Shown here piece by piece: positions 38,494-61,234 of a stretch of DNA of 64,000 nucleotides; the stretch's first letter is position 1; each line of letters begins with the position of its first letter. Made by a program: the position numbers and the translations under genes. Under the pieces are notes generated by a model. The model saw only the letters and a list, made by a program, of their open reading frames with translations. It made no database searches and was not told the origin of the DNA. The stretch comes from Deltaproteobacteria bacterium (GTDB lineage Bacteria > Desulfobacterota > Syntrophia > Syntrophales > Smithellaceae): the NCBI GenBank assembly GCA_026388535.1, contig JAPLJP010000089.1:3865-67864 (forward strand). The letters are read 5' to 3'.

Positions 38494-38707
38494 AAAAAAA
38501 GCATCCAGGCGCCAAAGGATACTTGATCTCATACATTAGGGAGGATTTTATTAAATTTTTTCAATGGTTTTATAGAAAAAGTTAATTGAGCAAGAAACAT
38601 ATTATATTTGCCCCAAGCCACAGCGTACTTGATCTTTTAGTTGATATTGCAGTGCGGGAGAGTATTAAAAATAACTTATTTTTATCTAAAATTAATTGGT
38701 TGTAAGT

Positions 38708-40135: not shown

Positions 40136-41563
40136 TCATTCGGTAACAGTCACTGTCTTTTTCGGGAGATCACTTTCAATACTTGAGCGCTGCGAGCAGA
40201 CAAGTGTTCCGTAATACTGTTCCACTACTATCATTATGCAGACCGTCAATATGAGCAGCGGATTGACGATTGTTCCACAACGGACATCAAAGAACAAAAT
40301 CCAGAATCCCTTGGGAACTACGATGAGACACAGAAGCGCAAGATAGGTTCTGGTCCATCGGGTCTCCTTGCCACTGCGGATAAGCAAAAACATAGGCACC
40401 AGTGTGTGAATCAACTTGTAATCGTAAGACGGAAACGGCAACAACTGGACCGCCGCCACCAGAACAAACCACGCTTTCCAGAATTCGAGACGGGAAAAAA
40501 ACACATACGCCAAGACGGCCAACGCAATAATCCCAGCCACAACATAATAATATGCAATGATTGGCCTTAGCGACGCCACACTTATGAAAGCGTGGTGGAG
40601 TAGAGCCCAGAATGAGTACAGCATGCTAAAAAGACTGATGTTGTGGGTGAGTCCGTTGTACTTGAAAAGCATTAAATCGCTGAAATTCCGGAGCGCGTTT
40701 CTCAGCAGGGTGAGATTTTCAAATACTCCTCCCTCCAGAAAAAGCAGCGCAACTATGGTCAGACAGACGGGTACCGCTACTCCGATCATAAGCTCTTTCC
40801 AGCGACGTTCCCTTACAAAAAATATGAGAAATATGATAGGGAACCCCTTGATCGAAGCCGCAAGACCGATACATGCGGCGGCCAATTTGCCGCGACCGGA
40901 CAGATAAAGCCACGCCGCGCAGGCCAGAAAAATGAAGATGATCCCCTCAATGTTTCCGCGATCAAGCGTAAACAAGAGTGGATAACTCATCAGAGTGAAT
41001 ACCAGAACATTCAGGCATCGCTGACCTATGCTGTCCGACAATCCGTCACCAAGTGCCTTGGCTGACGCGAAAACTGCAAAACCAATGACAAACAGCGAGT
41101 ATATTACCAAGCTTGCGTACTTGTTTATAAGGGTGAATGGATAAAACAGAAGATGGGTGAACGGAAAGTAATTACTCGCTTCCGTGGGATAGTGAGAGTA
41201 CATAATTACTCCTCCCACATTCTTAATCATATTGCTATCTCCGAGTACTCCTATCACATTCTTAATCTGATAGGGATTCCTATCGGCGGTCATCCGAAGG
41301 ACACCCAAGAAGTCCTGAAATCTGTCAGCCGGTCTGAACAGAAAAGTAGAATACGGGTAATCCCTTCCGAGAAACACTGCATAAAACACGCAAAACGCTA
41401 CGCCCAAGATAAACCCTGCGGCAAGAAAAATCCTGCAGAATCTGATTCGCCTTAAAACGATATCTTCAGGAATGCCATTCAACATCCCGTCCGCAAATTT
41501 CACAATATTATCCTGTTGAGGTCGTTCATTCGTTCTAAACTTTTTGCTTGTTTTCCCGCTCAC
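40136..41563 (-). CDS. Polytopic membrane protein, paralog 2 of 3 (putative GT-C-type glycosyltransferase or polymerase)
   Basis: Contains YSTFLFRPADRFQDF, YFPFTHLLFY, YPLLFTLDRGNIE, IKGFPIIF and YDYKLIHTLVPMF. Starts at GTG 41563; an alternative ATG lies at 41485. Confidence 0.55.
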   Translation of the reverse strand: MSGKTSKKFRTNERPQQDNIVKFADGMLNGIPEDIVLRRIRFCRIFLAAGFILGVAFCVFYAVFLGRDYPYSTFLFRPADRFQDFLGVLRMTADRNPYQIKNVIGVLGDSNMIKNVGGVIMYSHYPTEASNYFPFTHLLFYPFTLINKYASLVIYSLFVIGFAVFASAKALGDGLSDSIGQRCLNVLVFTLMSYPLLFTLDRGNIEGIIFIFLACAAWLYLSGRGKLAAACIGLAASIKGFPIIFLIFFVRERRWKELMIGVAVPVCLTIVALLFLEGGVFENLTLLRNALRNFSDLMLFKYNGLTHNISLFSMLYSFWALLHHAFISVASLRPIIAYYYVVAGIIALAVLAYVFFSRLEFWKAWFVLVAAVQLLPFPSYDYKLIHTLVPMFLLIRSGKETRWTRTYLALLCLIVVPKGFWILFFDVRCGTIVNPLLILTVCIMIVVEQYYGTLVCSQRSSIESDLPKKTVTVTE

Positions 41564-41771: not shown

Positions 41772-42488
41772 TTAAAGAATATAACCTGCTTTTTGTGCAT
41801 CATTGTAAAACATTTTAACTGTATCAAGAGAAAATTCAGTAAGATCTTTACTAACAAGGTTTAACTTATTTAAAATATCGTTTGTCACGGTAATCACATG
41901 GCAGCCGATTGCATCTGCCTGAAAAATATTAAGAAGCTCCCTGGGACTTGCCCAAATCAGTTCGGCTGCTGGCACAAGGCTAATAATTTCAACAGCAGCA
42001 GCCATCAACGGCAAAGGATCACGGCCGGTATCAGCAATACGACCGGCAAACACCGAAACATAGCTCGGCACAGAGGGATTTAGCACGGCTGCCACATCTC
42101 GTACCTGAGTCAGGGTCATCATTGCTGTTACATTAAGCTTGACCTTTTGTTCCGCCAGTTTTTTTACCAACGCATAACTTGGTTTTTGTTTGGTGTTGGT
42201 AACAGGAATTTTGACATAGACGTTATTGCCCCAACTGGAGATTTCCAAAGCTTGACGCTCCATCTCGGCAAAGTCATCGGAGAAAACCTCAAACGATATC
42301 GGTTTATCCTTGATCATCGTCAGAATGTCCTTACAAAATGCACGGTAGTCAGCGATACCGGCCTTCTTCATCAAAGTGGGATTGGTTGTCAGCCCCTTGA
42401 TATAGTGTTTGGAATACATCTCCAGCATACCGGCCTTATCTGCGCCATCAGCAAAAATCTTGATTTTTAGGTCTTCAATTTTTTTCAT
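41772..42488 (-). CDS. Transaldolase-family protein (short TalC/FSA-like form)
   Basis: 238 aa with FADGAD...GLTTNPTLM and a later KIP motif. Confidence 0.8.
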   Translation of the reverse strand: MKKIEDLKIKIFADGADKAGMLEMYSKHYIKGLTTNPTLMKKAGIADYRAFCKDILTMIKDKPISFEVFSDDFAEMERQALEISSWGNNVYVKIPVTNTKQKPSYALVKKLAEQKVKLNVTAMMTLTQVRDVAAVLNPSVPSYVSVFAGRIADTGRDPLPLMAAAVEIISLVPAAELIWASPRELLNIFQADAIGCHVITVTNDILNKLNLVSKDLTEFSLDTVKMFYNDAQKAGYIL

Positions 42489-43020
42489 TTGGCTTCCCCT
42501 TCAAAATTATTCGCGCGGCCTCAAGCAGAGAGGTTACGCGGTAATCAAACGCTTCAGGTTTTTTTTCATCGTAGTCATAGTCAATAAATATTGTTTTACA
42601 GCCGGCATGTCTTCCTGCTTCGGTATCTCGCCAGCGATCGCCAATCATATAGCTATTAATTAGATCAATCCCATGCTGTTTGGCCGCCGCCATCAATGAA
42701 CCGGGCAGCGGCTTTCTACAATCACAGCCATCGCCGCTGTCGTGATAACATATCCTAAACTCGTCAATCGGCAGGCAGTTCGCGAGATGCGCATTTATCT
42801 CTTCAACCAAAGCCCGAGGAGTTATGCCGCGGGCAACATCAGGTTGATTTGTCACCACAATCAGCATGAACCCGGCATCGCGTAATGCGGTTAGAGCATC
42901 TGAAACTCCCGGCAAGATCTCCACTTCGGAAAGACTTGCCGGCGGAAAAGGTTTGCCATCGCGTACGACTGCCCGATTAATCACTCCATCCCTGTCAATA
43001 AATACTGCCCGACGTTTCAT
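42475..43020 (-). CDS. gmhB: D-glycero-D-manno-heptose 1,7-bisphosphate phosphatase (HAD-IIIA)
   Basis: Contains FIDRDGVIN, VVTNQ and the CYHDSGDGCDCRKPLPG zinc motif, then GDRWRD. Confidence 0.8.
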   Translation of the reverse strand: MKRRAVFIDRDGVINRAVVRDGKPFPPASLSEVEILPGVSDALTALRDAGFMLIVVTNQPDVARGITPRALVEEINAHLANCLPIDEFRICYHDSGDGCDCRKPLPGSLMAAAKQHGIDLINSYMIGDRWRDTEAGRHAGCKTIFIDYDYDEKKPEAFDYRVTSLLEAARIILKGKPNEKN

Positions 43021-43033
43021 CGTTTTCAGCCTT

Positions 43034-43633
43034 TTACTTGACTATCGATTCCCATTTTGTTTGATTCGATTTAAGTTTCGGATGCGATACCAGCAAATGC
43101 CATATAACCGTCTGAAACGCCTCGGAATGAGGTGTAATGTTCTCCGTATTTACAGTCGGAACGATTACGCAGGCATCCGCTACCTTTGCCGTATAACCGC
43201 CGTCACGACCAACCACCCCGATAACTTTGGCACCAACAGACTTGGAGTATTTCAGAGCTTCCACCAGATTCGGACTTATATTTTTTTCAAGGTTACCGCC
43301 GCCAACTGAAAAGACAAAGACCGCATCCTTAGAGGAAAGTCTGCTTGTTTTCAGCCACTCAACAAAGATTGTTACCCAGCCTTCATCGTTAGTGCGTGCC
43401 GTCAATTCGGAAACGTTATCTGTCGGCGCATAGGATTCGATTCCGACTATTTTACGAAAATCATTCACCGCATGAGAACAGTTACCGGCGCTTCCTCCCA
43501 CGCCTAGAAAGAATATCCTTCCACCATCATGCTTGATGCCGGCAATTATATCCGCCATCCGCTCTATCGCCTCAACATCAATTTTGTTGAGAATATTGAT
43601 TGCCTCATTCAAATGCTGTTTAGCGTAACTCAT
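43034..43633 (-). CDS. gmhA: Phosphoheptose isomerase (SIS domain)
   Basis: Contains GGRIFFLGVGGSAGNCSHAVNDF and VFSVGGG. The gene sits between gmhB and the heptose nucleotidyltransferase. Confidence 0.82.
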   Translation of the reverse strand: MSYAKQHLNEAINILNKIDVEAIERMADIIAGIKHDGGRIFFLGVGGSAGNCSHAVNDFRKIVGIESYAPTDNVSELTARTNDEGWVTIFVEWLKTSRLSSKDAVFVFSVGGGNLEKNISPNLVEALKYSKSVGAKVIGVVGRDGGYTAKVADACVIVPTVNTENITPHSEAFQTVIWHLLVSHPKLKSNQTKWESIVK

Positions 43634-44337
43634 TCTTTATCTCTCTCCTTGAAATACTGTATAGTTTCATCCAGCCCCTTGTGAGAGCCAATTTCATAAA
43701 ATCGTTCGAACACCTCATGTCCTGCCAACAAACCCCTGATCGAAAGCTCGTGATAAATATCCGCCAAATCAAAAGGCTGATCTATGGGTACATTCTCGAA
43801 AACCGAAGCAGAAAGTATTCCCAGACCATAGTCAATGTATGTCATTTCCGGCCGCGGTACCTGCTTGTTGTATTCAGCAATGCAACCATTGCAGAACAAA
43901 ACATTGCTTTTGTCCCATTGATCGTTATTTTTCACCACTGTCATTATTGCCGGTTTTCCGCTTACCAAGAAATCACGCTCAACTGCTTTAAAATCAATCG
44001 GCAGATAGGAATCGCCATAATAAACAAAAAAACTCTCGTCCAAAAGTGGTAAAGCTTTTTTCAAGGCACCGCCCGTGCCTAACAAGCGCGGGCCATCCCA
44101 TGAATAGCGCACATCCAAACCAAGAGCCGAACCATCACCCACAAGCGCCTCCACCTGCTCACCAAGATGCCCCAGACACAGCACAACGCGAGCAATACCT
44201 TGTTGCTGCAAGTAGTCCAGTTGTCGCACTATAAAAGGCTTGCCCGCAACATCTACCAGTGCCTTAGGAATATTTTCGGTTATGGGCTTCAGGCGGGTCG
44301 ACAGGCCGCCCGCAAGGATGGCAACCGGTATACTCAT
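43630..44337 (-). CDS. hddC: D-glycero-alpha-D-manno-heptose 1-phosphate guanylyltransferase-like nucleotidyltransferase
   Basis: Contains AILAGGLSTRLKPITENIPKALV (NTP_transferase). It forms an operon with a GHMP kinase, gmhA and gmhB. Nucleotide specificity is inferred from this context only. Confidence 0.65.
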   Translation of the reverse strand: MSIPVAILAGGLSTRLKPITENIPKALVDVAGKPFIVRQLDYLQQQGIARVVLCLGHLGEQVEALVGDGSALGLDVRYSWDGPRLLGTGGALKKALPLLDESFFVYYGDSYLPIDFKAVERDFLVSGKPAIMTVVKNNDQWDKSNVLFCNGCIAEYNKQVPRPEMTYIDYGLGILSASVFENVPIDQPFDLADIYHELSIRGLLAGHEVFERFYEIGSHKGLDETIQYFKERDKE

Positions 44338-45314
44338 GCGAACACGACCTTTGTACCTTCAAAATCAAATCGAAAGCGCACCTCTTCAAGCCCTGCCTGT
44401 GCCATGGCGTGTTTCAAACGGTTTCGGTCATCCGCATAAAACATCAGAAAACCTCCACCTCCCGCGCCTACTAATTTTCCTCCAATAGCGCCATTCGCCC
44501 TTCCGAGTTCATACCATGCATCTATTTGCGGATTGCTCATTCCCTTTGATCTTTTTCGCTTATGCTCCCAGTGTTCATGCATTATTTCTCCGAACACCTC
44601 CGGTTTTCCATTCTCCAAAGCTTTTTTACTGCGCAAGCCAAGCTCTTTTGTGTAGTGCAAATTTTCAAGCATCTCTTGATCGGATTTTTCTGAACGCGTC
44701 TTTTGATCTTTTAAAACATTTCCAGCGTTTCTGGAAAAACCGGTAAAAAACAAAAGAAGATTATCCTCCAAATCAAATAAAGTATCCGTGCTGATCTTGA
44801 GCGGCGAAGATTCCACGGAATCATCCTTATTAAAATTGAAACATGTCAGCCCGCCATATGCCGCAATGTATTGATCCTGTTTGCCGATAGGCTCCTTTAA
44901 CTTTTCAATTTCAATCTCACAGGCCAGCTTTGCCAAATCGCCGGGAAGAAGCAGTTTTCTCTCCTGCATGTACAAAGCTTTTAGCAATGCTGTAGTAAAA
45001 CTCCCTGACGAACCCAATCCTGTGCCTGAAGGAATGTCTGCCAAAGTCGTGATTTCCAACTGCGGCCTTTCATAGTCAAACAACTTAATGGCTTCCCGGA
45101 TGATTGAATGTTGCACATCTTCAATTTTCTCCACATGTTCAAGTTTAGAGTACTTTAAAAAAATCCCGGGAGTAAAAGGCCTGATGACCGTTACATACAC
45201 ATATTTATCGATAGCTGCCGCAATCAGAAAACCGCCATAATTGCGATAATAGGAAGGCAAATCCGTTCCACCACCCCCAAGGCTGATGCGCAGAGGACTA
45301 CGAGTTATAATCAT
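44334..45314 (-). CDS. hddA: D-glycero-alpha-D-manno-heptose 7-phosphate kinase-like GHMP kinase
   Basis: Contains RSPLRISLGGGGTDLP and PSGTGLGSSGSF GHMP motifs. The context is as described for hddC. Confidence 0.68.
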   Translation of the reverse strand: MIITRSPLRISLGGGGTDLPSYYRNYGGFLIAAAIDKYVYVTVIRPFTPGIFLKYSKLEHVEKIEDVQHSIIREAIKLFDYERPQLEITTLADIPSGTGLGSSGSFTTALLKALYMQERKLLLPGDLAKLACEIEIEKLKEPIGKQDQYIAAYGGLTCFNFNKDDSVESSPLKISTDTLFDLEDNLLLFFTGFSRNAGNVLKDQKTRSEKSDQEMLENLHYTKELGLRSKKALENGKPEVFGEIMHEHWEHKRKRSKGMSNPQIDAWYELGRANGAIGGKLVGAGGGGFLMFYADDRNRLKHAMAQAGLEEVRFRFDFEGTKVVFA

Positions 45315-46290
45315 AACCAGACTCCTTGTATATTTTCTGAATAACCTTCAGCGATTCATAGGCATCCCGCAACCCGACAACTGGTGAGCGATTCATGCGT
45401 ATATCATCGTAAAATTCCGCTATTTCCACAGCCCAGGAATCATCCGCTTCAGGATATTCCCAAACCATTATTTCCGGCGGGCCCATCTGGGGCAACATTT
45501 TGTAATGCGTCAATCGCTCAACCCCGTAACTTCCGCCCAATCCGGAAATATCGAGCTTTCCATCGCGGCCGTATATTTCCATAGAAAACAAGTTTTTCCA
45601 TTCTGTCCAGCTTGCGTGTAAAAATGCAACTTGATTTTTTGCTGTTCTCAATAACATGAAGCCATTATCCTCTACCGGCATGTTCCAGTAATAGGTATGG
45701 GCAAAACCCTGAACGTCTATAAACTCACCCAGAAACCAGCGGGAAAGATCAATCAGATGCGATCCCTGATCAATCAGTTCCCCGCCTCCGGACAGCTTCG
45801 GATTTGCACGCCACTCTTTGTCATATCCAAGCCTACCTCCATGACCGTAGCGTGCCCGTATGAACATCAGCTCACCTAATTGTCCGGATTCAAACAACTC
45901 CCGAGCCTTCCGGAATGCATGGTGATAACGGTGATTGAATCCCACGCGTATCATTACTGTGCTTTGTTCGGCCGCTGCCATGACCGGCGCAAGCTCCGCA
46001 AGATTACGCGCGGCCGGTTTTTCAACCAAAACATGCTTCCCGGCTTCAATCGCGGCAAGCGTTATTTCCGCCAGCGTCTCATGCAAAGTAGAAACAAAAA
46101 TAATCTCAACTTCAGGTATTGTCAAAAGCTTTCGCCAATCACTAAAAGATTCGGCACCGTTTGTCTGTGCCAGGGCTTTTGCTTTTTCTTTATTAATGTC
46201 AGCGCAGGCAACAAGCCTGCCCTCACCAAGGAATTGAGCCCGCTTTTGCCCTATCAGGCCGCAACCGATAATTCCCACGCCAAAACTCAT
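45298..46290 (-). CDS. Gfo/Idh/MocA-family oxidoreductase
   Basis: An N-terminal Rossmann motif (GIIGCGLIGQKR) and EKP motif (VLVEKPAA). Confidence 0.85.
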   Translation of the reverse strand: MSFGVGIIGCGLIGQKRAQFLGEGRLVACADINKEKAKALAQTNGAESFSDWRKLLTIPEVEIIFVSTLHETLAEITLAAIEAGKHVLVEKPAARNLAELAPVMAAAEQSTVMIRVGFNHRYHHAFRKARELFESGQLGELMFIRARYGHGGRLGYDKEWRANPKLSGGGELIDQGSHLIDLSRWFLGEFIDVQGFAHTYYWNMPVEDNGFMLLRTAKNQVAFLHASWTEWKNLFSMEIYGRDGKLDISGLGGSYGVERLTHYKMLPQMGPPEIMVWEYPEADDSWAVEIAEFYDDIRMNRSPVVGLRDAYESLKVIQKIYKESGYDYNS

Positions 46291-47150
46291 TTGTCCCCCC
46301 AGGAAAATCCTTTGTCTCTTCCGGTGATACGCCGCAAAGTATAAACATCGCTTGTGTTCAACTCATCAAGATGTTGCGGCCACTCTTCCCAATTATCCCA
46401 AACGGCGCTGATTAATTTGCCGGTAATCTCCTTGCTTGCATCAGTAGCGAGGAATAGTACCAAATCCGCGACGTGGTCCATTGAGGTACCGCCTTCCGAA
46501 AATACCTTTTGGGCATGGGCAAATTCACGTTCACCTGCCGCCGCAGTTCCTTTTTGCAATACTTCGCCCAACATATCCGTCTTCATCGCTCCGGGCGCAA
46601 CACAATTAACCCTTATACCAAAAGGCTTAGTCTCTTCTGCAAGAGTCTCGCTAAAGCGGACCAAACCAGCCTTTGCTGTAGCATAGGCGCTGAAATTAGC
46701 TCTTGGTCCGGTCGCGCCGCCACCGGAAAGATTAACAATCGAGCCACCACCGGTTTCTTTCATCCAAGGGATAAACGCACGACACAAGAATACCGGAGCC
46801 AGCAAATTAACCTGGATAGTTTTCTGCCAGTCTTCCCATTTGTTTTCCCATAAAGGGCCAATTGTACCCTGAATACCAGCATTGTTAATCAGCACATCCA
46901 GCCTGGGAAACATGGACTTGGCAGTTTTAACGATTCTCTCAACTTCATCCGGGTAGGCGAGATCACCGGCTATGGTATTGAGCGACTGTCCCTGTCTGTC
47001 GCCCAGAGCACTAGTAACCTGATTCAAAACATTCTGGTCTCTGGCAGATAATATAAGGCTCCAGCCATGCTGCCAAAAATGCCCGGCGAGCACTTTACCA
47101 AGCCCGCGGGTGGCACCGGTTATCAAGCAATACATACTTTTCCTATCCAT
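46287..47150 (-). CDS. SDR-family oxidoreductase
   Basis: Contains TGATRGLG, NNAG and YATAKAG (YxxxK). Confidence 0.85.
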   Translation of the reverse strand: MDRKSMYCLITGATRGLGKVLAGHFWQHGWSLILSARDQNVLNQVTSALGDRQGQSLNTIAGDLAYPDEVERIVKTAKSMFPRLDVLINNAGIQGTIGPLWENKWEDWQKTIQVNLLAPVFLCRAFIPWMKETGGGSIVNLSGGGATGPRANFSAYATAKAGLVRFSETLAEETKPFGIRVNCVAPGAMKTDMLGEVLQKGTAAAGEREFAHAQKVFSEGGTSMDHVADLVLFLATDASKEITGKLISAVWDNWEEWPQHLDELNTSDVYTLRRITGRDKGFSWGDK

Positions 47151-48028
47151 TGTTGGTGGCTACCCCTATAGGCCATTTTGAAACCTGATACCGATAATCA
47201 ACAAGTGAAGATAATAAACGCCAAGGTAGAATTTCGATAATCTGGTTCTTCTTCTTCAAGCCTAAGTTCTTCAGGACTCCATATTTGATTATACCAACAA
47301 GTCTACCAAGAGGGACTCCTTGTCTTGCTTCAAACCCCGATTTCTGCAATGCGTAAATCATCGTTTCCGGTTCAAAGAAACTGATATGAACCGCTGTACA
47401 AGCCGTATATGACCATGCAAGCAAGCGTTCCCGCCACGGTTTTGCGTTGCCCGTTGTAAAGAAGAAGATCCCGCCCGGCTTCAATAACGATCTTATCAAT
47501 CTCAACGTAGCCAAAGGGTCTACGCTATGCTCTATGACTTCTATTGCACTTACAAAATCAAACTTGCCTTCTTCAGTTTTCAACTCATCTGATGATAATA
47601 TTGGAATTCCCCTTAAGTGGCCAGCTTGTAATCCCCATCCCTCTTCAAATCCAACAATATCAATTCCTTGTTTCTTTGCAAAAGCGACGAGCCCCCCCGT
47701 CCCGCATCCAAAATCAAGCCAACGCCCCCCCATTCGGCAAAAGGTCATTAAAAATTACGCAGAAGCTCTGCCATGCGTAGTTTCGTATTGTCAGATCAGG
47801 GTAATCCAGTTCATACATATAATCAATCATAGGGTCTGCACCAAGCCCCTTATAATAATCCTCTGAGTAAAGCACCTCGTAATCTGTTCTTGGATTTCCA
47901 ATGAAAGAAAAGTGACATGAGTTACAGTGGAAATAGCTGTATTCACGAGCATCAAATCGGCCGGACTTCTTGCAGATTAATACAGCTTCATGTGAGCAAA
48001 TTGGACAGCAGTTAACCTCGGCATTCAT
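47143..48028 (-). pseudogene. Zn-ribbon class I SAM-dependent methyltransferase, frameshifted in a poly-G tract
   Basis: The N-terminal ORF (to 47714) has CPICSHEAV...HCNSCHF and stops right after a G7 run. The C-terminal ORF (47143..47748) starts within that run and continues RWLDFGCGTGGLV (SAM motif I). Removing one G fuses the two ORFs. Confidence 0.75.
47692..47731 (-). repeat. Two G7 homopolymer tracts on the coding strand, 26 nt apart
   Basis: C7 runs on the plus strand at 47692-47698 and 47725-47731. I saw no other G or C runs longer than 6 in the window. Confidence 0.9.
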
Positions 48029-48984
48029 TTCCTTGACTCCATAACCCATCCGTTATTTTTCAAAAACTTCACCGTTTTCACAACACCATCACGGATAGAA
48101 TGTTTAGGCACCCAACCCAATGAGCGAATTTTTTTTGTATCGAGAAAGATGAATGGGCTATCGCCAATCCAACCTCTCTCTCCGCCCGCATATTCAAGTT
48201 TCGGATTGACACCAAGTTCTTCGCTAATCCATTTGACGGAATCGTTAACCTCGGAATAACCGTCAACTCCCAGGTTTAAAACATTGATCTTGTCAGTGGC
48301 CTTCTCTATTGCGATCTGCATCGCATCAATGCAATCCTGAATGTAAAGATAGGACTTTCGCTGTTTGCCGTTGCCCAGCACTTTCAATTGTGTTGAGTCA
48401 GATTTCAATTGTTTGTAAAAATCAAATACATGACCGTGCGTATAACGTTCACCGAGAATGGAGACAAAACGGAAAATCCACGACTGAAAATCAAACCCTT
48501 CGCAATAAGCCTGTATAAGTCCCTCACAGGCAAGCTTTGTTGCACCGTATAATGATGTTTGAATCGGGGAAGGCGCATCTTCCGGTGTAGGGAAAATATC
48601 CGGCTCACCGTATATGGAACCAGTGGAAGAAAAAGCAATTTTTTTAATATCGTTTGCCCTCATGGCTTCCAATACATTAAACGTTGCGATAGTGTTTTGC
48701 TCCAGATCTTTTTGCGGATGTTCAGTACCGAAACGGACATCCGCATTGGCGGCGAGATGAAATACAAATTCACCACCGGAAAAAAAGTGTTTTAGAGAAT
48801 CAAAGTCGAGAAGATCACCCTCCATCAACGTAAAATAAGAATTCTTAAGCGCGCCTTCCAGAAAACGGTGGCGACCGGTCGAAAAATTATCAATACCGAT
48901 GACGTGCTGACCCTGAGAAAGCAGCTTATCCACAAGGGTGCTGCCAATGAAACCGGCACAGCCTGTGACTATATACGTTTGCAT
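48025..48984 (-). CDS. NAD-dependent epimerase/dehydratase (extended SDR)
   Basis: Contains VTGCAGFIGSTLV and YGATKLACE. Confidence 0.85.
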   Translation of the reverse strand: MQTYIVTGCAGFIGSTLVDKLLSQGQHVIGIDNFSTGRHRFLEGALKNSYFTLMEGDLLDFDSLKHFFSGGEFVFHLAANADVRFGTEHPQKDLEQNTIATFNVLEAMRANDIKKIAFSSTGSIYGEPDIFPTPEDAPSPIQTSLYGATKLACEGLIQAYCEGFDFQSWIFRFVSILGERYTHGHVFDFYKQLKSDSTQLKVLGNGKQRKSYLYIQDCIDAMQIAIEKATDKINVLNLGVDGYSEVNDSVKWISEELGVNPKLEYAGGERGWIGDSPFIFLDTKKIRSLGWVPKHSIRDGVVKTVKFLKNNGWVMESRK

Positions 48985-49454
48985 AATGCTTTAAATATAC
49001 CTCCATTCAGCAATATTGAACCAACACCATTACCAGTGCTGGCATTGAATACAAATAATTTCAAAAGTAGAAAATTAATTGGATATAAAATAAATGTCGT
49101 CATTATACGGGCAAGAAAAGAATCTATCCCGACAATATCTACTAAACAAAACATCAATACGGACGAGAGAAGCATCGAAACTGCTGAAGCTACAACGTAT
49201 AAAGCAAGCTGGGAAACCACACGTTTGCTTTTATCCTTGAAAGTAACTATCCGATTCAGAATGAAATTAGCGCTAGAACCTAAAAAAATCGAGATAATAA
49301 CGCATATCAAATAATGCAACCCAAGTTGTTTGCTCATTAAATAAAACGAACCCCAATCTAAAGCCGTTGAAATGCCTCCGACAAGGCCATATACAATAAA
49401 TTGCCTAAACCAAGATTTTTTTACAATGTCAAAAAATTGCTTGGGAATCTTCAT
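48969..49454 (-). CDS. GtrA-family membrane protein
   Basis: 161 aa with 4 TM helices. Contains FIVYGLVGGISTALDWGSFYL, and FILNRIVTF in the second half. Confidence 0.8.
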   Translation of the reverse strand: MKIPKQFFDIVKKSWFRQFIVYGLVGGISTALDWGSFYLMSKQLGLHYLICVIISIFLGSSANFILNRIVTFKDKSKRVVSQLALYVVASAVSMLLSSVLMFCLVDIVGIDSFLARIMTTFILYPINFLLLKLFVFNASTGNGVGSILLNGGIFKALCKRI

Positions 49455-50743
49455 TTGGTGTTATAATTCCTTACATTAAGTTTTTGGGCCATTAACATAG
49501 CGCGATGCACACACTCGTCAAAATTGATATACTCGAATTCAGCGAAACGACCTAAAAGATCTATCTTCTGTTCCTCAAAATATGCCCGCATGCGTTTTGT
49601 ATTATCAGAGTAATTTTTATCGTAGATTGGGTAGGCGTACTCAAACCGGCGGGTTTCGGAAGAAATGATATCGCTATGATTAAGTATCCCTAAGCTTTCC
49701 AGATCGCGAACAGTTTTTTCAATGAGCGCGGCATCAGACATGCGATCCAACTCATCACCGGGACGAACAGTAATTTCAGCGATGAGAGATGAAGAAGCTG
49801 ACTTTACCATATTAGGACTGAAAAAACCCATATAACACACCCTATGCGGTAGCACTAAAGGGTCTGGAATGTAGAAGGCACTTTTATCCATAAGCGATTC
49901 ATTATTTACAGCAATAAATACTATGCGGATGGATGTGTATCTAAGCGCCTCAACCACATTCAAAATATCATTAGGCGCATCTTGAAAACACTTAAGCGCA
50001 TCATGGATTGGAAATGAAATAACAATATGTTCAAATTCGCGCGTTCTAGACCCGTCAGACACTTGCCAACCGCCGCTTTTGCGAATTATATTCCGAACTT
50101 TAAATCCAGTTTCTAAGGGCATGGCCTTTTTAGTCATTTGTTTTATCACACTTTCAAAACCACCGCTCAGAGGATAGCGGAAAAAGAGCTGGTGGAGATA
50201 ACCTTCAGTCTGAATGCCCAATGCGGATTTAACGATATCTTCCATTGGTGGTTTCGGAATTCGTTCTACCCATTCAAGACTAATCTGGCTCGGATTCATT
50301 TTCCATATTTTATTATTGTAGGGAATGAGGTATTTTTCGGCAATCCCTTTTCCAAAAGTATGATACGCCCATTCCGCCAGATTGCTTGGCGGCGGATAAT
50401 CATTTTTTAGATATCCGATTAAGCATTCGTACCTGTCCTCCACATCTAGTGCCGCCAGATCATTTTCAAAGGGATATTTCATATACTTTCCCTTGAAAAG
50501 AATCTTGTTCTCTCTTCGGCAGTGATTGACGTTTTCTCCGAGGATTTCGGTAACTAGATTGTTAACATGCTCATACTTCGAAAAGAGAATGTGCCCGCCG
50601 ATGTCATAACCGAACCCGTCTTTCCAAAAAGTTCGGCACAATCCTCCCGGCGTCTTCTCCATCTCGAGTATTTCGCTCGGATGATTGAGAAACCTTTGCA
50701 ATGTTATACCGCTGATACCGCCGCCTAAGATGCCAATGTTCAT
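49451..50743 (-). CDS. FAD-dependent oxidoreductase, UDP-galactopyranose mutase / amine-oxidase-like
   Basis: An N-terminal dinucleotide fold (IGILGGGISG) and a C-terminal GRFAEFEYINFDECV segment resembling the UGM tail. Confidence 0.6.
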   Translation of the reverse strand: MNIGILGGGISGITLQRFLNHPSEILEMEKTPGGLCRTFWKDGFGYDIGGHILFSKYEHVNNLVTEILGENVNHCRRENKILFKGKYMKYPFENDLAALDVEDRYECLIGYLKNDYPPPSNLAEWAYHTFGKGIAEKYLIPYNNKIWKMNPSQISLEWVERIPKPPMEDIVKSALGIQTEGYLHQLFFRYPLSGGFESVIKQMTKKAMPLETGFKVRNIIRKSGGWQVSDGSRTREFEHIVISFPIHDALKCFQDAPNDILNVVEALRYTSIRIVFIAVNNESLMDKSAFYIPDPLVLPHRVCYMGFFSPNMVKSASSSLIAEITVRPGDELDRMSDAALIEKTVRDLESLGILNHSDIISSETRRFEYAYPIYDKNYSDNTKRMRAYFEEQKIDLLGRFAEFEYINFDECVHRAMLMAQKLNVRNYNTK

Positions 50744-50749
50744 AGTGAC

Positions 50750-51427
50750 CTATCCCAAAAACCGTACCCGCAATATCCTTTTCAGAGTCCACCAAGCACT
50801 TTCAAGGGGACGCATGGTAGTAGTTCCAATCCGTATACTGTATGTGATAAAATGAAACCTAACCTTAGAACCGTTCCTCAACGGTCGAAGCAGAAGTTCC
50901 ACCGGTAACGCTGGCCCCTGTGCTTGCACTTTAAGACTGTCGATCATGGTTTTGCGGTAGGCGCGCATTCCGCTATGCAGATCAGTGATCCATTTCCCGA
51001 AAAGAATACTTGCCAGGAGAGCAAAGCCTGCATTGGCTAGATAGTTGAGCCAAGGCATCGCTCGTGGCTTGTTTTTGAGGCGTGAGCCATCCACCAGATC
51101 CCAACCCTCAACCAGTACCATGTTCGTCATTATGGAAATCTGGTCGGCAGGATAGGTATCGTCGCAGTCAAGTGTAACCACGACATCGCCCGAAGCCGAC
51201 CGCAATGCGGCCTCCATTGCGGGACCATAACCCTTAGGAGGAAACTGCCTTATGACTCTTGCGCCAAGAGCTGATGCTATTTCAGGGGTTCGATCTTTAC
51301 TTGAATCTACCACAAGAATCTCCGCATCGGGTGCGAAATGGCGAATGTCACCAATTACCTTCCCCACAGCTTTTTCTTCATTCATAGTGATCATTGCAAC
51401 AGTGATAGCTGTCTTTTTCATGTTCAT
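50750..51427 (-). CDS. Family 2 glycosyltransferase (dolichyl/polyprenyl-phosphate sugar synthase-like)
   Basis: Contains ITVAMITMNEEKAV, VVDSSKDRT and TLDCDDTYP (DxD). Confidence 0.8.
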   Translation of the reverse strand: MNMKKTAITVAMITMNEEKAVGKVIGDIRHFAPDAEILVVDSSKDRTPEIASALGARVIRQFPPKGYGPAMEAALRSASGDVVVTLDCDDTYPADQISIMTNMVLVEGWDLVDGSRLKNKPRAMPWLNYLANAGFALLASILFGKWITDLHSGMRAYRKTMIDSLKVQAQGPALPVELLLRPLRNGSKVRFHFITYSIRIGTTTMRPLESAWWTLKRILRVRFLG

Positions 51428-51429
51428 CC

Positions 51430-52185
51430 CTATAACTGCTTAATTTTTTCCGCCACCAATATGATTCTGAAGGCGAACATCCCCTTCCAGAAAGAGGCAA
51501 ACAGGTTCTCAAAGGGATAGAAATATCGCATGTAAAACTGAAAAGGCTTTGATTCGATTATTGACCTAGCACTGGTCGTTTTGCTTCCAATAATCGATTT
51601 GATCACGGGCAGAAAGGCCCGGACTATATAGGGAGTACTATCCACTTTCACAATTTTGCAACCGGTCTTTTCAATTAGAAGCCTTGCCGTTTTGAAGGTA
51701 AAAAAACGGATATGTGTACGGTCCATAACACCAGTGTCCTCGTACTCTACTCGGCCCAGCAACCATTTGAATCGGTTTGTCCATACGACAGCATTCGGCA
51801 CCGAAATCAAAACCCTTCCACCAACAGGTATGTAATTAAGATATTTTGTTAAAACTTTTAAGGGATCGTAAAGATGTTCAAGTACATCAGAGAATACCAA
51901 CGTCGAAAAAAAATCCTTTTCCAGAACACTCGCAAGTACACTTTCATCCATAATATCGGCGCAGATTACACGGGCTAGTCTCTTTTCTGCAATTTTGTTT
52001 GCTTCGTCGTTTCTCTCAATTCCCCAAACTTCCCACCCCAACGACTGAATTGCTTCGCCCAGTTGTCCTCTGCCGCATCCGACATCCAAAACCTTCCCTT
52101 GGGGTTGAAAACTTTTAAATTGGCGCAGAATCCCTTCGTTAACCTCCTCCAGATACGGATATTCCGAGCGTCCCAAATCAAACAT
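51430..52185 (-). CDS. Class I SAM-dependent methyltransferase
   Basis: Start set at ATG 52185, after AGAGGAAAGG. Contains VLDVGCGRGQLG and VFSDVLEHL. Confidence 0.8.
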   Translation of the reverse strand: MFDLGRSEYPYLEEVNEGILRQFKSFQPQGKVLDVGCGRGQLGEAIQSLGWEVWGIERNDEANKIAEKRLARVICADIMDESVLASVLEKDFFSTLVFSDVLEHLYDPLKVLTKYLNYIPVGGRVLISVPNAVVWTNRFKWLLGRVEYEDTGVMDRTHIRFFTFKTARLLIEKTGCKIVKVDSTPYIVRAFLPVIKSIIGSKTTSARSIIESKPFQFYMRYFYPFENLFASFWKGMFAFRIILVAEKIKQL

Positions 52186-52308
52186 CAGAACAACCTTTCC
52201 TCTTCTCAAGTGTTTTTCCGTTTATGGTTTTGAGCTCCTTCATTTTTGTTTTCATTAATTATATCATCCTCAATACCAGTCACCATCATTATGTATATAG
52301 GCGGCGGA

Positions 52309-53340
52309 TTAACCCACGACATGTTTAATCTCTTCTTTCATCGCGCACATGGCATGATACACAGCAGCCGAGGAATCTCGCTGACATGTCCAGCCAAGGG
52401 CTTTGATTTTTTTGCAATCGAAACGTACCGAGGGCACATCGCCCTTCCAGCCGCGGTCGCCTCCGGTAAATTCATAGTGAACACTGTCTGATTGCAGGCC
52501 ACATACTTTCACGGCCATATCGGCTATCTGCTTGACTGTAATGTAGTCATCCGTTGCGACGTTGAACACATCGTAACGCGCAGTGCACAGTTCATTCGCC
52601 AGGAAAACTGCATGGAGTATATCGTCAACATGAATGTAGCTCTTGGTTTGTGATCCATCACCCAGGATGTGCAGGCGTGTGGGGTCTTGATTTAGCCTTC
52701 GAACAAAATCGTAGCCGACTCCGTGCGTCTGGCGCGGGCCCACTACATTGGCGAAACGAAATACCCGCGCGGTAATATCAAACATGTGACAGTAGGCACA
52801 AATAAGCGATTCGCAGGCAAGTTTGCTTGCCGCATAGGTAGAGATCGGCAAGCACGGGCCATGGTCCTCCGGAAATGCCACGGATGGATTCTCCCCATAC
52901 ACGCCACTGCCGGACGTATAGAGGATGCGGCGGACACCATTCACGCGCATGGCTTCGATTACGTTTTGCAAGAGGTAAGTGCCCTCCCAAAAATCGATAT
53001 CTGGTTGCGTGACTGCTTTCGCTATATCGGGGTTTGCTGCCAGATGAATCACGGTATCAGCGCCAGCCATAGACGCAGTAAGCAACGGCAGATCCTTGAT
53101 ATCCGCTTCGATAATGCGCCATCGTTTGTCTTTAGCTATATGACTTAAGTGCTCACGCGTACCGGACGAAAAATTGTCATAAACCACCATGCTTGCAATA
53201 TCACGCCGGGCCAGCAAGCGCTCCACCAAATGACTGCCAATGAAGCCCGCGCCACCGCTGATAAAAACATTCTTCAAAATTTCTCTCCTCAAATGTGATG
53301 AATGTAAATTTATAACATTTGATGAATTAGTTGTCCACAA
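52309..53340 (-). CDS. NAD-dependent epimerase/dehydratase (extended SDR)
   Basis: Contains ISGGAGFIGSHLV and YAASKLACE. The start codon is uncertain; the ORF track uses a TTG. Confidence 0.8.
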   Translation of the reverse strand: MWTTNSSNVINLHSSHLRREILKNVFISGGAGFIGSHLVERLLARRDIASMVVYDNFSSGTREHLSHIAKDKRWRIIEADIKDLPLLTASMAGADTVIHLAANPDIAKAVTQPDIDFWEGTYLLQNVIEAMRVNGVRRILYTSGSGVYGENPSVAFPEDHGPCLPISTYAASKLACESLICAYCHMFDITARVFRFANVVGPRQTHGVGYDFVRRLNQDPTRLHILGDGSQTKSYIHVDDILHAVFLANELCTARYDVFNVATDDYITVKQIADMAVKVCGLQSDSVHYEFTGGDRGWKGDVPSVRFDCKKIKALGWTCQRDSSAAVYHAMCAMKEEIKHVVG

Positions 53341-53431
53341 GAAACCTTGATGGCAACCTCATTAATATAAGTTTTAAACACGTAAATTTTTATAGAATAT
53401 GAATGAGTAGATCGATATGAAATATCTCTCA

Positions 53432-55366
53432 TCAATCTGTTACTTTTACCAAACGTAAATTTCGAAACATCACCAACAATACTCGCACATCACCATTGGG
53501 CAGATTTATGAAAACTGTCGGTGTATCGTGTGGCAGCAGCCTGACCACATTTTTTCCCGCTTGTATCGGCACAGTAAAGGCAAATGCCTCCTGTGCCCCA
53601 TTAATTGTGAGTTCCTGCACATAACTTCCGGATGAAATGCGTATTCGCCGCTGATTGCTTTCCGGTAAACTTGGGCCGGGATAGGCTCCCGCTGTGAATT
53701 GCGCCATGCCGGCTTTTATGGAAAAGAGTTCTATTTCCGTCTCACCATTTCCCAGCCAAAAAAATTGTACATTCGAAGGGTCACGCTCAAGTCCATTTTG
53801 ATTATAAATAGTGTCTATGCGCAGTTTTGCCGAAGGGACATCCGGTGGTATTTTGGGGGCGGGGTAAAAGTGATTGGTCAACTCGCTAATATTAATAGAA
53901 AATATATGCTCAAGATTTTGATATAATTGTGGGTTCCCGATCTTAAGGTTATCGTAATACCCTGTCATGCTGATGGAAATTGAAATCAAAATCGAAATCA
54001 AGGTGGGGACATAAAAACTCCATCTGCTTATGGTCGGCCCTGGACTCTGGGAATTGAAAATCAAGGGCCGAGCCGCTAGAAATAGTGCAATCGTTGCCAG
54101 TAGAAGTAATGGGGAGAAGTCAACGATGAACCGTATTGTGGTTCCCGGCATTTTTGACGCCAAAAAAAGTGTTGCCAAGCTAGCTGCAATCATGAACAGG
54201 GAAATAAGCAGGAAGGTCGATGAAGTTTTCCATATTGAGCGCAAACAAAACAAGGGAGCGGATAAGAGCCAATAAACGGGCAAGCTCAATAGTCCGATAG
54301 TCTTTTCATAGTTGTATTTAAAGACAGACGGGATATCGAACGGCGCCACAGGGGCGGCTATGTGAAAGAAAGGAAACCTCAGATCGAAGGGAATTGGCTG
54401 CAGTATGTTATGGTATAAGCCTAACGGAATGTAAATCCATGCCGTTAAGGCATCCCTATGCGGGTGTATACCTGATAATTGATACGAGAAACCAAACTCG
54501 AAAATCGATCCAAACCTGGCGTAGTTGTACCAGCACAGAGCCATGCCAATCACCACGATGGGGGTAATTAGAAAGCCAACATTTTTAATTACCGTCTTCG
54601 CCTTTTCATGCAAGAGGTGGTAGCGGATGACGATGAAGGCTATTATCATCAACCCGCATGCGAAAAGTTGATTGGGCCGCGAAACGATGCATAAACCAAG
54701 CAGGATGCCCGCAAGAACGATTTGAGCCCAAAGGTCTCTCCTTTGCGATGACATGGCGCCGATAAGAAAATACGTTCCGGCCATCATGAACGCGTATGCA
54801 GCAGCGATGCAGAGTTCGTAAACGGACGTCCGACGCAATAAAAACGGCACCATGTTTACCGTCGCCAAAACAAGCGCCGATGTCAACAACACCGGTAATG
54901 AAGCCGGCACCTTTCCAATCCGCAGGATTTTTAAAAGCGTTAAGTAACTGAAAACAAAACCGGCAAAACAAAAAAGAACCGTGAGTAATGCTTCCGAAAC
55001 GAAATACCCGGTCATCGCCTTGAAAGGCGCTATGAACAGCAACGCAACTACGGGGGTGAAATAGAAAAAATACTTTCCTTTGTACAATGACGCGTCATGC
55101 AGTCTGTACCTTGCATTGGCCACCGGATCATATGGATCATCCAGTGCCAGTAGTTCCGGACGTGGTTCTATCAGCAAACTTAACTGCCCGTGAAGAAATG
55201 CATCGGCCAATAAATCATGATAACCCTGACCATCATAAAAACCACGATAACTTTGGGGGGTTTCGGAAAGGTTGAAATGAAATGGGACCCAATTGGAAGA
55301 CGCGGTCCAGAGATAGAAGATCAAGACGACCCCGAAAAGCAATGCAAAGATCAAATTGCGTTTCAT
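53432..55366 (-). CDS. Large polytopic membrane protein with a C-terminal extracytoplasmic domain (putative GT-C glycosyltransferase)
   Basis: 644 aa. A first loop rich in acidic and aromatic residues (DDPYDPV...HDASLYKGKYFFYF) is followed by about 12 TM helices and a ~150-aa soluble tail. Confidence 0.5.
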   Translation of the reverse strand: MKRNLIFALLFGVVLIFYLWTASSNWVPFHFNLSETPQSYRGFYDGQGYHDLLADAFLHGQLSLLIEPRPELLALDDPYDPVANARYRLHDASLYKGKYFFYFTPVVALLFIAPFKAMTGYFVSEALLTVLFCFAGFVFSYLTLLKILRIGKVPASLPVLLTSALVLATVNMVPFLLRRTSVYELCIAAAYAFMMAGTYFLIGAMSSQRRDLWAQIVLAGILLGLCIVSRPNQLFACGLMIIAFIVIRYHLLHEKAKTVIKNVGFLITPIVVIGMALCWYNYARFGSIFEFGFSYQLSGIHPHRDALTAWIYIPLGLYHNILQPIPFDLRFPFFHIAAPVAPFDIPSVFKYNYEKTIGLLSLPVYWLLSAPLFCLRSIWKTSSTFLLISLFMIAASLATLFLASKMPGTTIRFIVDFSPLLLLATIALFLAARPLIFNSQSPGPTISRWSFYVPTLISILISISISMTGYYDNLKIGNPQLYQNLEHIFSINISELTNHFYPAPKIPPDVPSAKLRIDTIYNQNGLERDPSNVQFFWLGNGETEIELFSIKAGMAQFTAGAYPGPSLPESNQRRIRISSGSYVQELTINGAQEAFAFTVPIQAGKNVVRLLPHDTPTVFINLPNGDVRVLLVMFRNLRLVKVTD

Positions 55367-56295
55367 GTTGGAGAACCTTCCATACTGAGATTGGAATGTA
55401 TGTGTACAATATCAGGAACTCTCGCAACTGCAGTGCAACGAATCCCGAAAGGAAATGCAAACTTGCCGGCCAGCGCCTTTTCAAGCGAAAAAAACCATTC
55501 TAAAATTATGCTTTTCGAGGTTGTATTGATCTCTTCACGCACCATTTTTTCAATCTTGAAAGATTTTTCGCCGCTCTGCCCGAAACGCAAACGATTCAAT
55601 TTCTTCACAATGAAGAACGGCAGGTATGCAACAAAACCAAGTGAATTCACTTCTTGAAGTTCAAGTCCTGTCGCACTAATTTTTGTCAGTAATTCTTTTT
55701 TGCGGTAACGCCGGAAATGTCGCAGATGGGCATCAAAGTAGTCGTACAAATGGGGCCCTTGAGGCACTTCCAGAACAAGAATGCCGCCGGTTTTCAACAA
55801 TCTTGCCATCTTCTCCAGAGCCTTTTTATCGTCTTCGATGTGTTCAAGAACATTCAAGGCAACTACGGCATCGAATTGTCGCTCCTTCAGCGGACACTGC
55901 AGTAAATCCATTTGCACGAGCGGCACCCCAGGCAATGATTCACCCAGGCGCTCCAAGGGCTTTACTACAATGTCAGCGCCAACGAGCTCGGCATGAGGAA
56001 ATGCCCTTCTAAGGTCGTGAAGCAAAAATCCCGATGAACATCCGATTTCAAGCAAAGAACCGTCAAAAGGAAAACCGTAGCGTCGTAGCGCTTCAACGGC
56101 CGTGTTTCTGGAGGCAATGTCTATCGGGTGCAAACCGTCTCCGGCCTCTACCTCATGTAGTTCAGTCAATTCATCGTCCCATCCGATAGAATTTGTGGAA
56201 TATACCAGAACACGGGCTGTTCGCTTATCCATGCGGAACATCCCGCCATCCCAAACAGGTATTTCACCGGAAGGCAAGACGGGAAATTCAATCAT
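55363..56295 (-). CDS. Class I SAM-dependent methyltransferase
   Basis: Start set at MIEFPV (56295). Contains LLEIGCSSGFLL and VALNVLEHIEDD. Confidence 0.75.
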   Translation of the reverse strand: MIEFPVLPSGEIPVWDGGMFRMDKRTARVLVYSTNSIGWDDELTELHEVEAGDGLHPIDIASRNTAVEALRRYGFPFDGSLLEIGCSSGFLLHDLRRAFPHAELVGADIVVKPLERLGESLPGVPLVQMDLLQCPLKERQFDAVVALNVLEHIEDDKKALEKMARLLKTGGILVLEVPQGPHLYDYFDAHLRHFRRYRKKELLTKISATGLELQEVNSLGFVAYLPFFIVKKLNRLRFGQSGEKSFKIEKMVREEINTTSKSIILEWFFSLEKALAGKFAFPFGIRCTAVARVPDIVHIHSNLSMEGSPT

Positions 56296-57277
56296 TGAAG
56301 TTAACCTTCTTATCAATAATATAAAGCGGCCTTCGTTTAACCTCTTCATAGATGCGGCCAACATATTCTCCCATCAACCCCAAAGCAAGCAATTGCACAC
56401 CGGCGAAGAAGGTCACCACCAGCACCGTCGTCGACAAACCGGGTGTTAGAGGAAGACCTATTATCTTTTGAATCACATACCATCCGCCAAGGAGAAAGCT
56501 GAAGCACGAAAGTATAAAACCCGTTATCGACATTATCTGCAAAGGCCGAATGCCGAAACTGATCAGACCGTTTAATCCGATCTTGAGCGAGCCTGTAAGG
56601 CGGTTGTAATTGCCCTTTCCCGCAAAACGCTCATCACGGTCATATTCTACAAATGCCTGCTTAAAACCAACGTAGGCCACCAGACCGCGCAGAAATCCAT
56701 GGACTTCATTCAAGCGCCGCAATTCTTCAATCACACGCCTCGTCATGATACGGAAATCGCCGGTGTTACGGGGAATATTCACATCGCTCAATTTGTTAAT
56801 AACTGAATATCCGACATGAGCGATAATGCTTTTAATCAGCGTTTCCCCTTTGCGGGAACGCCGCTTGGCATACACAACCTCGTAGCCTTCATTGAGTTTC
56901 GCGTACATCTGCTCGATGAGTTCAGGTTGATCTTGCAGGTCAACGTCTATAATAACACATGTTTCCCCAGAACAGCTCAGGATACCGGCCATAGTTGCGG
57001 CCGGCTGCCCGAAACGCCGGGAAAACACCATCAGTTTTATATTTGGATTGCGGTTGATTTCTTCCATGATAACTTCTTCTGTCCGATCCGTCGAGGGGTC
57101 AAGGGTGAAGATGATTTCGTATGCCTTGCCCATTTGTGTAAACACTTTTTCAGTGCGTTCAAGAAATGGTCGAATATTAGCCTCTTCTTTATAAACAGGC
57201 ACAATGACTGAAATCTTGGCACTTCGGTCGCTTTTAATTTCTACTTTCGAATCTCTACTGGAGCTGTTTAAGTTCAC
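56288..57277 (-). CDS. Family 2 glycosyltransferase, polyprenol-phosphate sugar synthase type (GtrB/ArnC-like)
   Basis: Contains ISVIVPVYKEE and IIDVDLQDQPE, plus two C-terminal TM helices ending in MGEYVGRIY. Starts at a GTG preceded by GGGAGG. Confidence 0.85.
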   Translation of the reverse strand: MNLNSSSRDSKVEIKSDRSAKISVIVPVYKEEANIRPFLERTEKVFTQMGKAYEIIFTLDPSTDRTEEVIMEEINRNPNIKLMVFSRRFGQPAATMAGILSCSGETCVIIDVDLQDQPELIEQMYAKLNEGYEVVYAKRRSRKGETLIKSIIAHVGYSVINKLSDVNIPRNTGDFRIMTRRVIEELRRLNEVHGFLRGLVAYVGFKQAFVEYDRDERFAGKGNYNRLTGSLKIGLNGLISFGIRPLQIMSITGFILSCFSFLLGGWYVIQKIIGLPLTPGLSTTVLVVTFFAGVQLLALGLMGEYVGRIYEEVKRRPLYIIDKKVNFND

Positions 57278-57596: not shown

Positions 57597-57625
57597 TTGA
57601 CATACAAACAGAACTTCCCTATACT
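57597..57625 (+). promoter_or_regulatory. Sigma70-type promoter of paralog 3
   Basis: TTGACA, then TACAAACAGAACTTCCC (17 nt), then TATACT. AAGGACGG precedes the ATG at 57651. Confidence 0.5.
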
Positions 57626-57650
57626 CCCCCTGCAAGCAAGGACGGATGAA

Positions 57651-59391: not shown

Positions 59392-60174
59392 ATGAAAACA
59401 GTCATACTTGCCGGAGGCATCGGGTCCAGAATAAGCGAGGAAAGTCATCTTAAACCCAAGCCGATGATTGAACTGGACAACAACATGCCGATTTTATGGC
59501 ATATAATGAAATACTATTCGCATTTCGGACACAATGATTTTATTATCTGCTGTGGTTATAAAGGGTTTATTATAAAGGAATATTTCGCGAATTATTATCT
59601 GCATCGCTCTGATGTTACTTTTGATTTCACGAAAAAAAATGATCTGATAATTCATAATAACGTAGCCGAACCGTGGAAAGTCACTCTCGTTGATACAGGA
59701 ATCAATACCATGACTGGCGGACGCGTTAAAAGGATACGCAAATATGTGGAAGGTGAAACTTTCATGCTGACATACGGCGACGGTGTGGCGGATGTTGATT
59801 TGCGCGCGCTAATTGCTTATCATAAAAAAGAAAAGAAAACAGCCACTCTCACCGCTATTCAGCCCGGAGGCAGGTTCGGCACCATAGAAGTGAACAACAG
59901 AACCGGAAAGACAATTTTCTCGGAAAAGAGAAAAGAAGACGGCGGCTGGATAAACGGCGGATTCATGGTACTGGATCCGGGGATATTCAAATATTTAAAG
60001 GATGATAACACCATATTTGAAAGACAGGTTCTTGAAAGACTTGGTAAAGAAGACGAGCTTACGGTATACAAACATAACGGTTTCTGGCAGTGCATGGATA
60101 CCATGCGGGATAAGTCGTATCTTGACGGCCTTGTTGAAAAAGGCGAGGCGCCGTGGATGGTGTGGAAAAAATGA
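59392..60174 (+). CDS. rfbF: Glucose-1-phosphate cytidylyltransferase
   Basis: Contains VILAGGIGSRISEESHLKPKPM and HNGFWQCMDTMRDK, typical of RfbF/DdhA. Confidence 0.9.
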   Translation: MKTVILAGGIGSRISEESHLKPKPMIELDNNMPILWHIMKYYSHFGHNDFIICCGYKGFIIKEYFANYYLHRSDVTFDFTKKNDLIIHNNVAEPWKVTLVDTGINTMTGGRVKRIRKYVEGETFMLTYGDGVADVDLRALIAYHKKEKKTATLTAIQPGGRFGTIEVNNRTGKTIFSEKRKEDGGWINGGFMVLDPGIFKYLKDDNTIFERQVLERLGKEDELTVYKHNGFWQCMDTMRDKSYLDGLVEKGEAPWMVWKK

Positions 60175-61232: not shown

Positions 61233-61234
61233 AG

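Follow-up and report, generated by a model that had tools for sequence, protein, structure and literature searches.

Within the 64-kb stretch of DNA analysed here (the window), a methyltransferase gene of a glycan locus is split into two open reading frames at a run of seven guanines, and a second run of the same length lies within the downstream frame. The question raised by this locus is whether the gene is a phase-variable switch, as the original prediction proposed, a gene inactivated by an ordinary frameshift, a split gene that is still expressed, or an intact gene misread in sequencing. The features of the gene are as follows.

47143..48028, minus strand: whole disrupted gene, 294 aa after removal of one G from tract 1 (in silico repair, homologue alignment)
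47714..48028, minus strand: upstream fragment, 104 aa from MNAEV, zinc-ribbon N-domain CPIC...CNSC (ORF list, Logan gene call)
47143..47733, minus strand: downstream fragment, 196 aa, class I SAM methyltransferase domain (ORF list; Methyltransf_23; P0007, P0122)
47725..47731, minus strand: tract 1, G7, the frameshift site (sequence, run census, in silico repair)
47692..47698, minus strand: tract 2, G7, in frame in the downstream ORF (ACG GGG GGG CTC = T-G-G-L)

The minus strand reads CCG AAT GGG GGG GCG TTG GCT TGA, then TTT TGG ATG CGG GAC GGG GGG GCT C, in exact agreement with the original prediction, with the two tracts spaced by exactly 26 nt. The upstream fragment ends at the TGA (47716-47714) located 8 nt past tract 1, and the two ORFs, which are in different frames, overlap at that tract. 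Removal of one G from tract 1 yields G6, read as AAT GGG GGG CGT (N-G-G-R), and a single ORF of 294 aa, the junction of which matches the family consensus P-x-GGRWLDFGCGxGGL exactly, with all family-invariant residues kept; the proposals that a +1 frameshift lies inside the G run, that G6 restores the frame, and that deletion of one G joins the zinc-ribbon N-domain to SAM motif I were thus borne out. In silico, a tract 1 of G6 or G9 gives a full-length product (294 or 295 aa), whereas G7 gives the 104-aa and 196-aa fragments. The repaired protein has approximately 1200 database matches, of which the best (290-300 aa) align from end to end with 78%, 70% and 66% identity. In an alignment of 22 homologues, C8, C11, C35 and C38 of the upstream fragment are invariant; tract 2 encodes the Gly-Gly of SAM-binding motif I (G111 and G112), which is invariant or nearly so. 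Apart from the single extra G, the gene is without further decay, and its exact repair by one G with every invariant residue kept indicates that the lesion is recent.

The idea that tract 2 might compensate for tract 1 was rejected: a TGA between the tracts in the shifted frame makes this impossible. A scan for promoters and terminators around the frameshift site gave nothing above the expectation from shuffled sequence, and tRNA and Rfam elements are absent from the window.

Enzyme family and heptose cassette

The repaired protein scores 94.6 bits with PF13489 (Methyltransf_23; cut-off 27, E = 7e-27) and contains the motif LDFGCGTGG; Pfam and the alignment make it a class I SAM methyltransferase whose N-terminus carries a four-cysteine zinc ribbon. 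An AlphaFold2 model of it (pLDDT 91, pTM 0.91) was compared with known structures by Foldseek, and the top matches are all nucleotide-sugar C-3'-methyltransferases: TcaB9 (3ndi), KijD1 (5t67) and MtmC (4rv9), with E values of ~1e-10 to 1e-11, query TM of 0.56-0.59 and target TM of 0.41-0.45. At the sequence level, a phmmer search of the PDB found nothing beyond UbiG-type domains. In TcaB9, a zinc domain with four cysteines precedes the class I SAM fold, and fusion of such a domain to the N-terminus of the SAM domain is shared by the repaired protein and enzymes of the TcaB9/KijD1/MtmC type. The adjoining oxidoreductase, SDR and dehydratase-type genes suit an enzyme that methylates its sugar at the stage of the nucleotide-sugar (keto-sugar). 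The differences are that identity to these three enzymes is just 13-18%, that they have three domains in ~400 aa (about 405 aa) compared with 294 aa here, and that they act on dTDP-hexoses of antibiotic pathways. The predicted substrate is a nucleotide-activated (keto-)heptose, which would be methylated on carbon or oxygen. The identification of a glycan-locus SAM methyltransferase in the original prediction is therefore upheld by the Methyltransf_23 match and by the glycan genes on either side, but its comparison with heptose O-methyltransferases was a guess, the nearest folds being those of nucleotide-sugar C-methyltransferases.

The gene lies in the first of two successive groups of genes on the same strand.

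41772..48984, minus strand: conserved nine-gene cassette (Pfam and NCBIfam scans)
48969..57277, minus strand: remaining same-strand run of glycan genes (Pfam/NCBIfam scans)

The cassette consists, in order, of genes for an epimerase/dehydratase (extended SDR), the Zn-methyltransferase, an SDR, a GFO/IDH/MocA oxidoreductase, an HddA-like kinase, an HddC-like nucleotidyltransferase, a GmhA-like isomerase, a GmhB-like phosphatase and a transaldolase. The same gene order is found in ~35-40 of the 81 loci that were compared (among them L002, L004-L009, L011 and L015), distributed over many phyla; the hosts include Yersinia (Yersinia alsatica among them), a Rhizobium isolate, Comamonadaceae, Omnitrophota, Acidobacteriota, Planctomycetota and others. 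The best or near-best equivalog hits of these enzymes all score under the curated cut-offs (HddA, 173 bits against 600; HddC, 93 against 300; GmhA, 49 against 209; GmhB, 105 against 178). Judged by sequence similarity, the gene set together with the transaldolase fits a putative pathway to GDP-D-glycero-alpha-D-manno-heptose (GmhA, HddA, GmhB, HddC), and the heptose-tailoring operon of the original prediction is recognizable in neighbours that resemble the GDP-heptose pathway plus tailoring enzymes, with equivalog hits below cut-off. The sugar product of the cassette appears to be uncharacterised.

The remaining run encodes GtrA, an FAD oxidoreductase-like protein, a GT2 resembling polyprenyl-phosphate sugar synthases, a methyltransferase, an epimerase, a 644-aa protein, another methyltransferase and another GT2. 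The 644-aa ORF (53432-55366, minus strand) has no match in Pfam or NCBIfam, and its weak relatives (28-32% identical) occur beside GT2 and methyltransferase genes in loci of Solirubrobacterales. A 449-aa ORF that adjoins the run (57597-58946, plus strand) has no Pfam match. Two divergent genes for glycosyltransferases of family GT87 (GT-C type; 38696-39967, plus strand, and 40136-41563, minus strand) flank the heptose cassette. The combination of the GT87 pair, GtrA and the polyprenyl-phosphate-sugar-synthase-like GT2 suggests that glycosylation may take place on the outer face of the membrane.

Guanine runs in the window and among orthologues

Both tracts are GGG-GGG codings of conserved Gly-Gly pairs (GGRWLDFGCGxGG). 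They are the only G/C runs of at least 7 nt in the 64-kb window, and the run census agrees with the original prediction in finding no other run longer than 6; runs of exactly 6 number four, at 10541, 35702, 46295 and 55255. Under a first-order Markov model of the window, 4.05 runs of at least 7 nt would be expected against the 2 observed, and 17 runs of at least 6 nt against 6, a depletion of approximately 3-fold. The glycan loci of a sister lineage (34 kb) likewise contain no G/C run of at least 7 nt. No glycine codon is rarer in the window than GGG, which makes up 13% overall but encodes 9 of the 28 glycines (32%) of the methyltransferase gene; from the gene's own GGG frequency the chance of GGG-GGG at two of its three Gly-Gly sites is estimated at roughly p = 0.005-0.03; the double pair is unusual, yet not extraordinary. 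The high GGG usage of the gene may reflect a foreign origin of the tailoring block.

Orthologues were compared at 81 loci including the window gene, the nearest with DNA being L002 (70% identical) and L003 (74%), with P0001 (78%) left out of the DNA comparison. All of the other copies (80/80) are intact, except that L003 is cut by the end of its contig. GGG GGG occurs at the first site only in L004, in frame as G6, and at the second site only in L032; none of the 80 orthologues has both runs, and L002 and L003 have neither. It is common in the family for Gly-Gly codons to form a G6 run (13 of 81 genes), and G7 is found in two high-GC members at sites other than the two of the window. Inspection of the tract in related genomes, which the original prediction had named as a check, thus speaks against it: no orthologue retains both runs, and the nearest ones (70-74% identity) have neither.

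Among the matches listed in the protein collection, the best besides the window's own fragment is 78% identical, and none is a same-species allele with a different tract length. A scan of JGI metagenomes found no relative, and a search with a 59-aa junction peptide, uninformative in itself, gave no match. According to cluster look-ups, the species has been seen solely in one NCBI contig of 71,263 bp, from which the window is taken, and in the Logan run SRR20698648. Literature searches returned no papers linking Smithella or Deltaproteobacteria with (SSR) phase variation, and none on SRR20698648.

Assemblies, other lesions and loss in a sister lineage

A Logan contig of 5516 bp (L001, from SRR20698648) is 100% identical to window positions 45155-50670, with both runs at G7, and a second one of 3.3 kb from the same run (L087) is 100% identical to positions 41845-45176, so that together they match the window at 100% over 41845-50670. 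Agreement between the NCBI and Logan sequences signifies independence of the assembler, not of the data. Approximately 58 other homopolymers of 7-9 nt, including A8 and A9, sit inside intact ORFs. A general homopolymer error across the assembly was considered and rejected, because every A/T run, the longest being 9 nt, sits in an intact frame.

The two Logan contigs overlap by 22 nt (45155-45176) and end exactly at an A7 run (45157-45163). This break may represent a branch, hence a polymorphism, in the SRR20698648 read set.

Three lesions of three kinds are found among the ~57 genes of the window, the other two being in the following genes.

3260-4547 (junction ~4255-4268), plus strand: mnmE (trmE), disrupted (homologue comparison)
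60171-61232, plus strand: rfbG-like CDP-glucose 4,6-dehydratase gene with an in-frame TAA at 60945-60947 (alignment to PDB 1rkx)

The pieces of mnmE are a 362-aa ORF (3260-4348) and a second frame (4203-4547) that ends in the canonical FCIGK, with the frame change at an AAAATCG junction. The gene is without ~30 residues (IDLPP...KISAK.G, including the G5 region) that are present in all Smithella relatives (458-459 aa), and the junction suggests a deletion between short direct repeats. Repaired MnmE is 73-80% identical to MnmE of metagenome-assembled genomes of Smithella, a member of the Syntrophales (Thermodesulfobacteriota). In the rfbG-like gene, which has an rfbF-like gene (59392-60174) on one side and an RfbH gene (61226-62569) on the other, the TAA replaces the Asn of NFGPNDAD (Yersinia 1rkx), and the frame is unchanged past the stop.

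A sister lineage is represented by L083, L084 and L085 (from JGI 3300038619, JGI 3300018044 and ENA ERZ27249949), with ~87% nucleotide identity to the window over the hddA-to-transaldolase segment and over the second epimerase. The heptose core genes are present in it, but the first epimerase, the Zn-methyltransferase and the SDR are missing. All that L083 and L085 have left of the GFO oxidoreductase gene is a decayed 3' remnant (L083:7907-8245 and L085:9-347, corresponding to window positions 45298-45672) adjoining hddA; it covers residues 218-330 at 87% identity and is interrupted by internal stops. Independent loss of the block in the sister lineage indicates that the tailoring block is dispensable in this clade.

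Explanations of the frameshift and known systems

A sequencing or consensus error, by which a true tract 1 of G6 in an intact gene would have been systematically miscalled and the miscall carried into both assemblies, is an unlikely explanation. Homopolymer length is a classic weak point of several sequencing platforms, both assemblies may stem from the same run (SRR20698648), and three damaged genes in 64 kb could mean a poor consensus; but the other ~58 homopolymers of 7-9 nt lie in undisturbed frames, tract 2 is in frame despite being equally long, the lesions of the other two genes, a ~90-nt deletion in one and a base substitution in the other, are not homopolymer miscalls, and the perfect match of the 3.3- and 5.5-kb Logan contigs fits accurate reads better than noisy ones. 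The identical G7/G7 lengths from two assemblers, together with the long homopolymers elsewhere in frame, are counted for a real lesion. Continued expression of the split gene, whether by low-level +1 ribosomal slippage, by transcriptional slippage on the G run or by re-initiation that would yield a stand-alone catalytic domain with or without the zinc-ribbon fragment, is highly improbable, even though the G7 state itself creates an ATG at the tract (47731-47733, minus strand; A-ATG-GGGGGG), whose G opens tract 1 and which shares its frame with the catalytic domain (MGGRWLDFGCG...). This ATG is used by gene callers as a start of the downstream ORF, the NCBI call beginning instead at 47748 (47143-47748, 201 aa), and with the upstream stop so close past the tract, termination and re-initiation would be geometrically possible. 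The ATG is not preceded by a Shine-Dalgarno-like sequence, however, unlike the adjoining genes (GGAG or AGGA), both parts are fused in 80/80 homologues, the zinc domain of TcaB9 and KijD1 is within a single polypeptide, and transcriptional insertions in the transcriptomes of E. coli and Buchnera occur predominantly at A and T runs (PMC5574713).

The remaining alternative is an evolved SSR contingency locus, in which selected G tracts would let slippage toggle the methyltransferase between ON (G6 + G7) and OFF at a high rate, diversifying the glycan, for example against phages. A G7 within a reading frame reaches the cut-off of at least 7 G/C by which candidate phase-variable genes are nominated, although G7 is the minimum and the authors of PhasomeIt warn that mutability may be below 1e-5, inefficient for switching (PMC6321876). 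The adjacent pair of tracts in one gene for tailoring of a surface glycan, in a genome where such runs are otherwise avoided, argues for a switch and counts against a plain frameshift; furthermore, the gene belongs to a class typical of phase-variable loci, with a precedent in the phase-variable capsule 6-O-methyltransferase gene cj1426c of Campylobacter jejuni (PMC8355987), and its lack of other damage is to be expected of a reversible OFF state. Against this, most proven tracts of C. jejuni measure G9-G10 and are carried by an organism that has no functional mismatch repair; their switching rates are 1e-4 to 1.6e-3 per division, and the variation was seen experimentally (PMC8355987). Both tracts of the window are missing from close and distant orthologues, the tract lengths are the same in two assemblies, no other candidate tract exists in the 64 kb or in the 34 kb of sister loci, no in-frame variant of the species is among the protein-collection matches listed, and the non-repeat lesions in two genes along with the block deletion in the sister lineage provide a simpler account. 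Such a contingency locus is therefore an unlikely reading, and the narrower claim that the two G7 runs form a hypermutable switch of a nucleotide-heptose methyltransferase in a free-living Smithella-like syntroph is slightly more doubtful still. The phase-variable switch of the original prediction consequently gives way to plain inactivation, in view of a tract that relatives do not share, its minimal length, the other lesions and the sister deletion.

Plain inactivation is favoured by the combination of a frameshift that can be repaired exactly, the absence of the tract in relatives, the broken genes nearby and the sister deletion: the gene for a tailoring methyltransferase was probably inactivated recently, by genuine +1 slippage at an incidental G6 run. 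The lesion appears to be a real mutation rather than a read error, and the split protein is presumably inactive. According to the proposed mechanism, replication slippage would have added one G to an in-frame G6 (AAT GGG GGG CGT) encoding a conserved Gly-Gly, and the resulting G7 would separate the zinc ribbon of the nucleotide-sugar methyltransferase from its catalytic part, so that a dispensable tailoring step of the heptose-glycan cassette would carry a loss-of-function allele. The cell's glycan would most likely lack that methyl group, or the pathway would stall at this point. Slippage back to G6 would be possible in principle, with the run being a by-product of Gly-Gly codon choice rather than a selected switch.

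As it stands, the locus is a case of a surface-glycan tailoring module undergoing routine decay or diversification, by slippage frameshift in one lineage and by deletion in its sister. If the tracts were a true switch, a surface glycan would be subject to poly-G phase variation in an organism that is not a host-adapted pathogen, with phages of methanogenic communities as a possible driver; poly-G contingency loci would then extend to environmental syntrophs, and glycan phase variation would seem to matter in anaerobic consortia. In practice, finding a G7 frameshift in a metagenome bin or draft genome provides no evidence of phase variation unless per-read tract counts accompany it or relatives conserve the tract.

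The methyltransferase gene resembles cj1426c in having a homopolymeric G run in frame within a methyltransferase gene of a heptose-containing surface-glycan locus, and in that a length change of one base truncates the protein (PMC8355987). It differs in that its run is G7, known from consensus sequences, in that the tract is not common to its relatives, and in its Smithella-like Syntrophales host. With ordinary slippage frameshift pseudogenes it shares a single-base insertion in a run of 6-7 nt, a gene that is otherwise intact, and the inactivation of other genes; the sole present difference from these is the second run of equal length 26 nt away.
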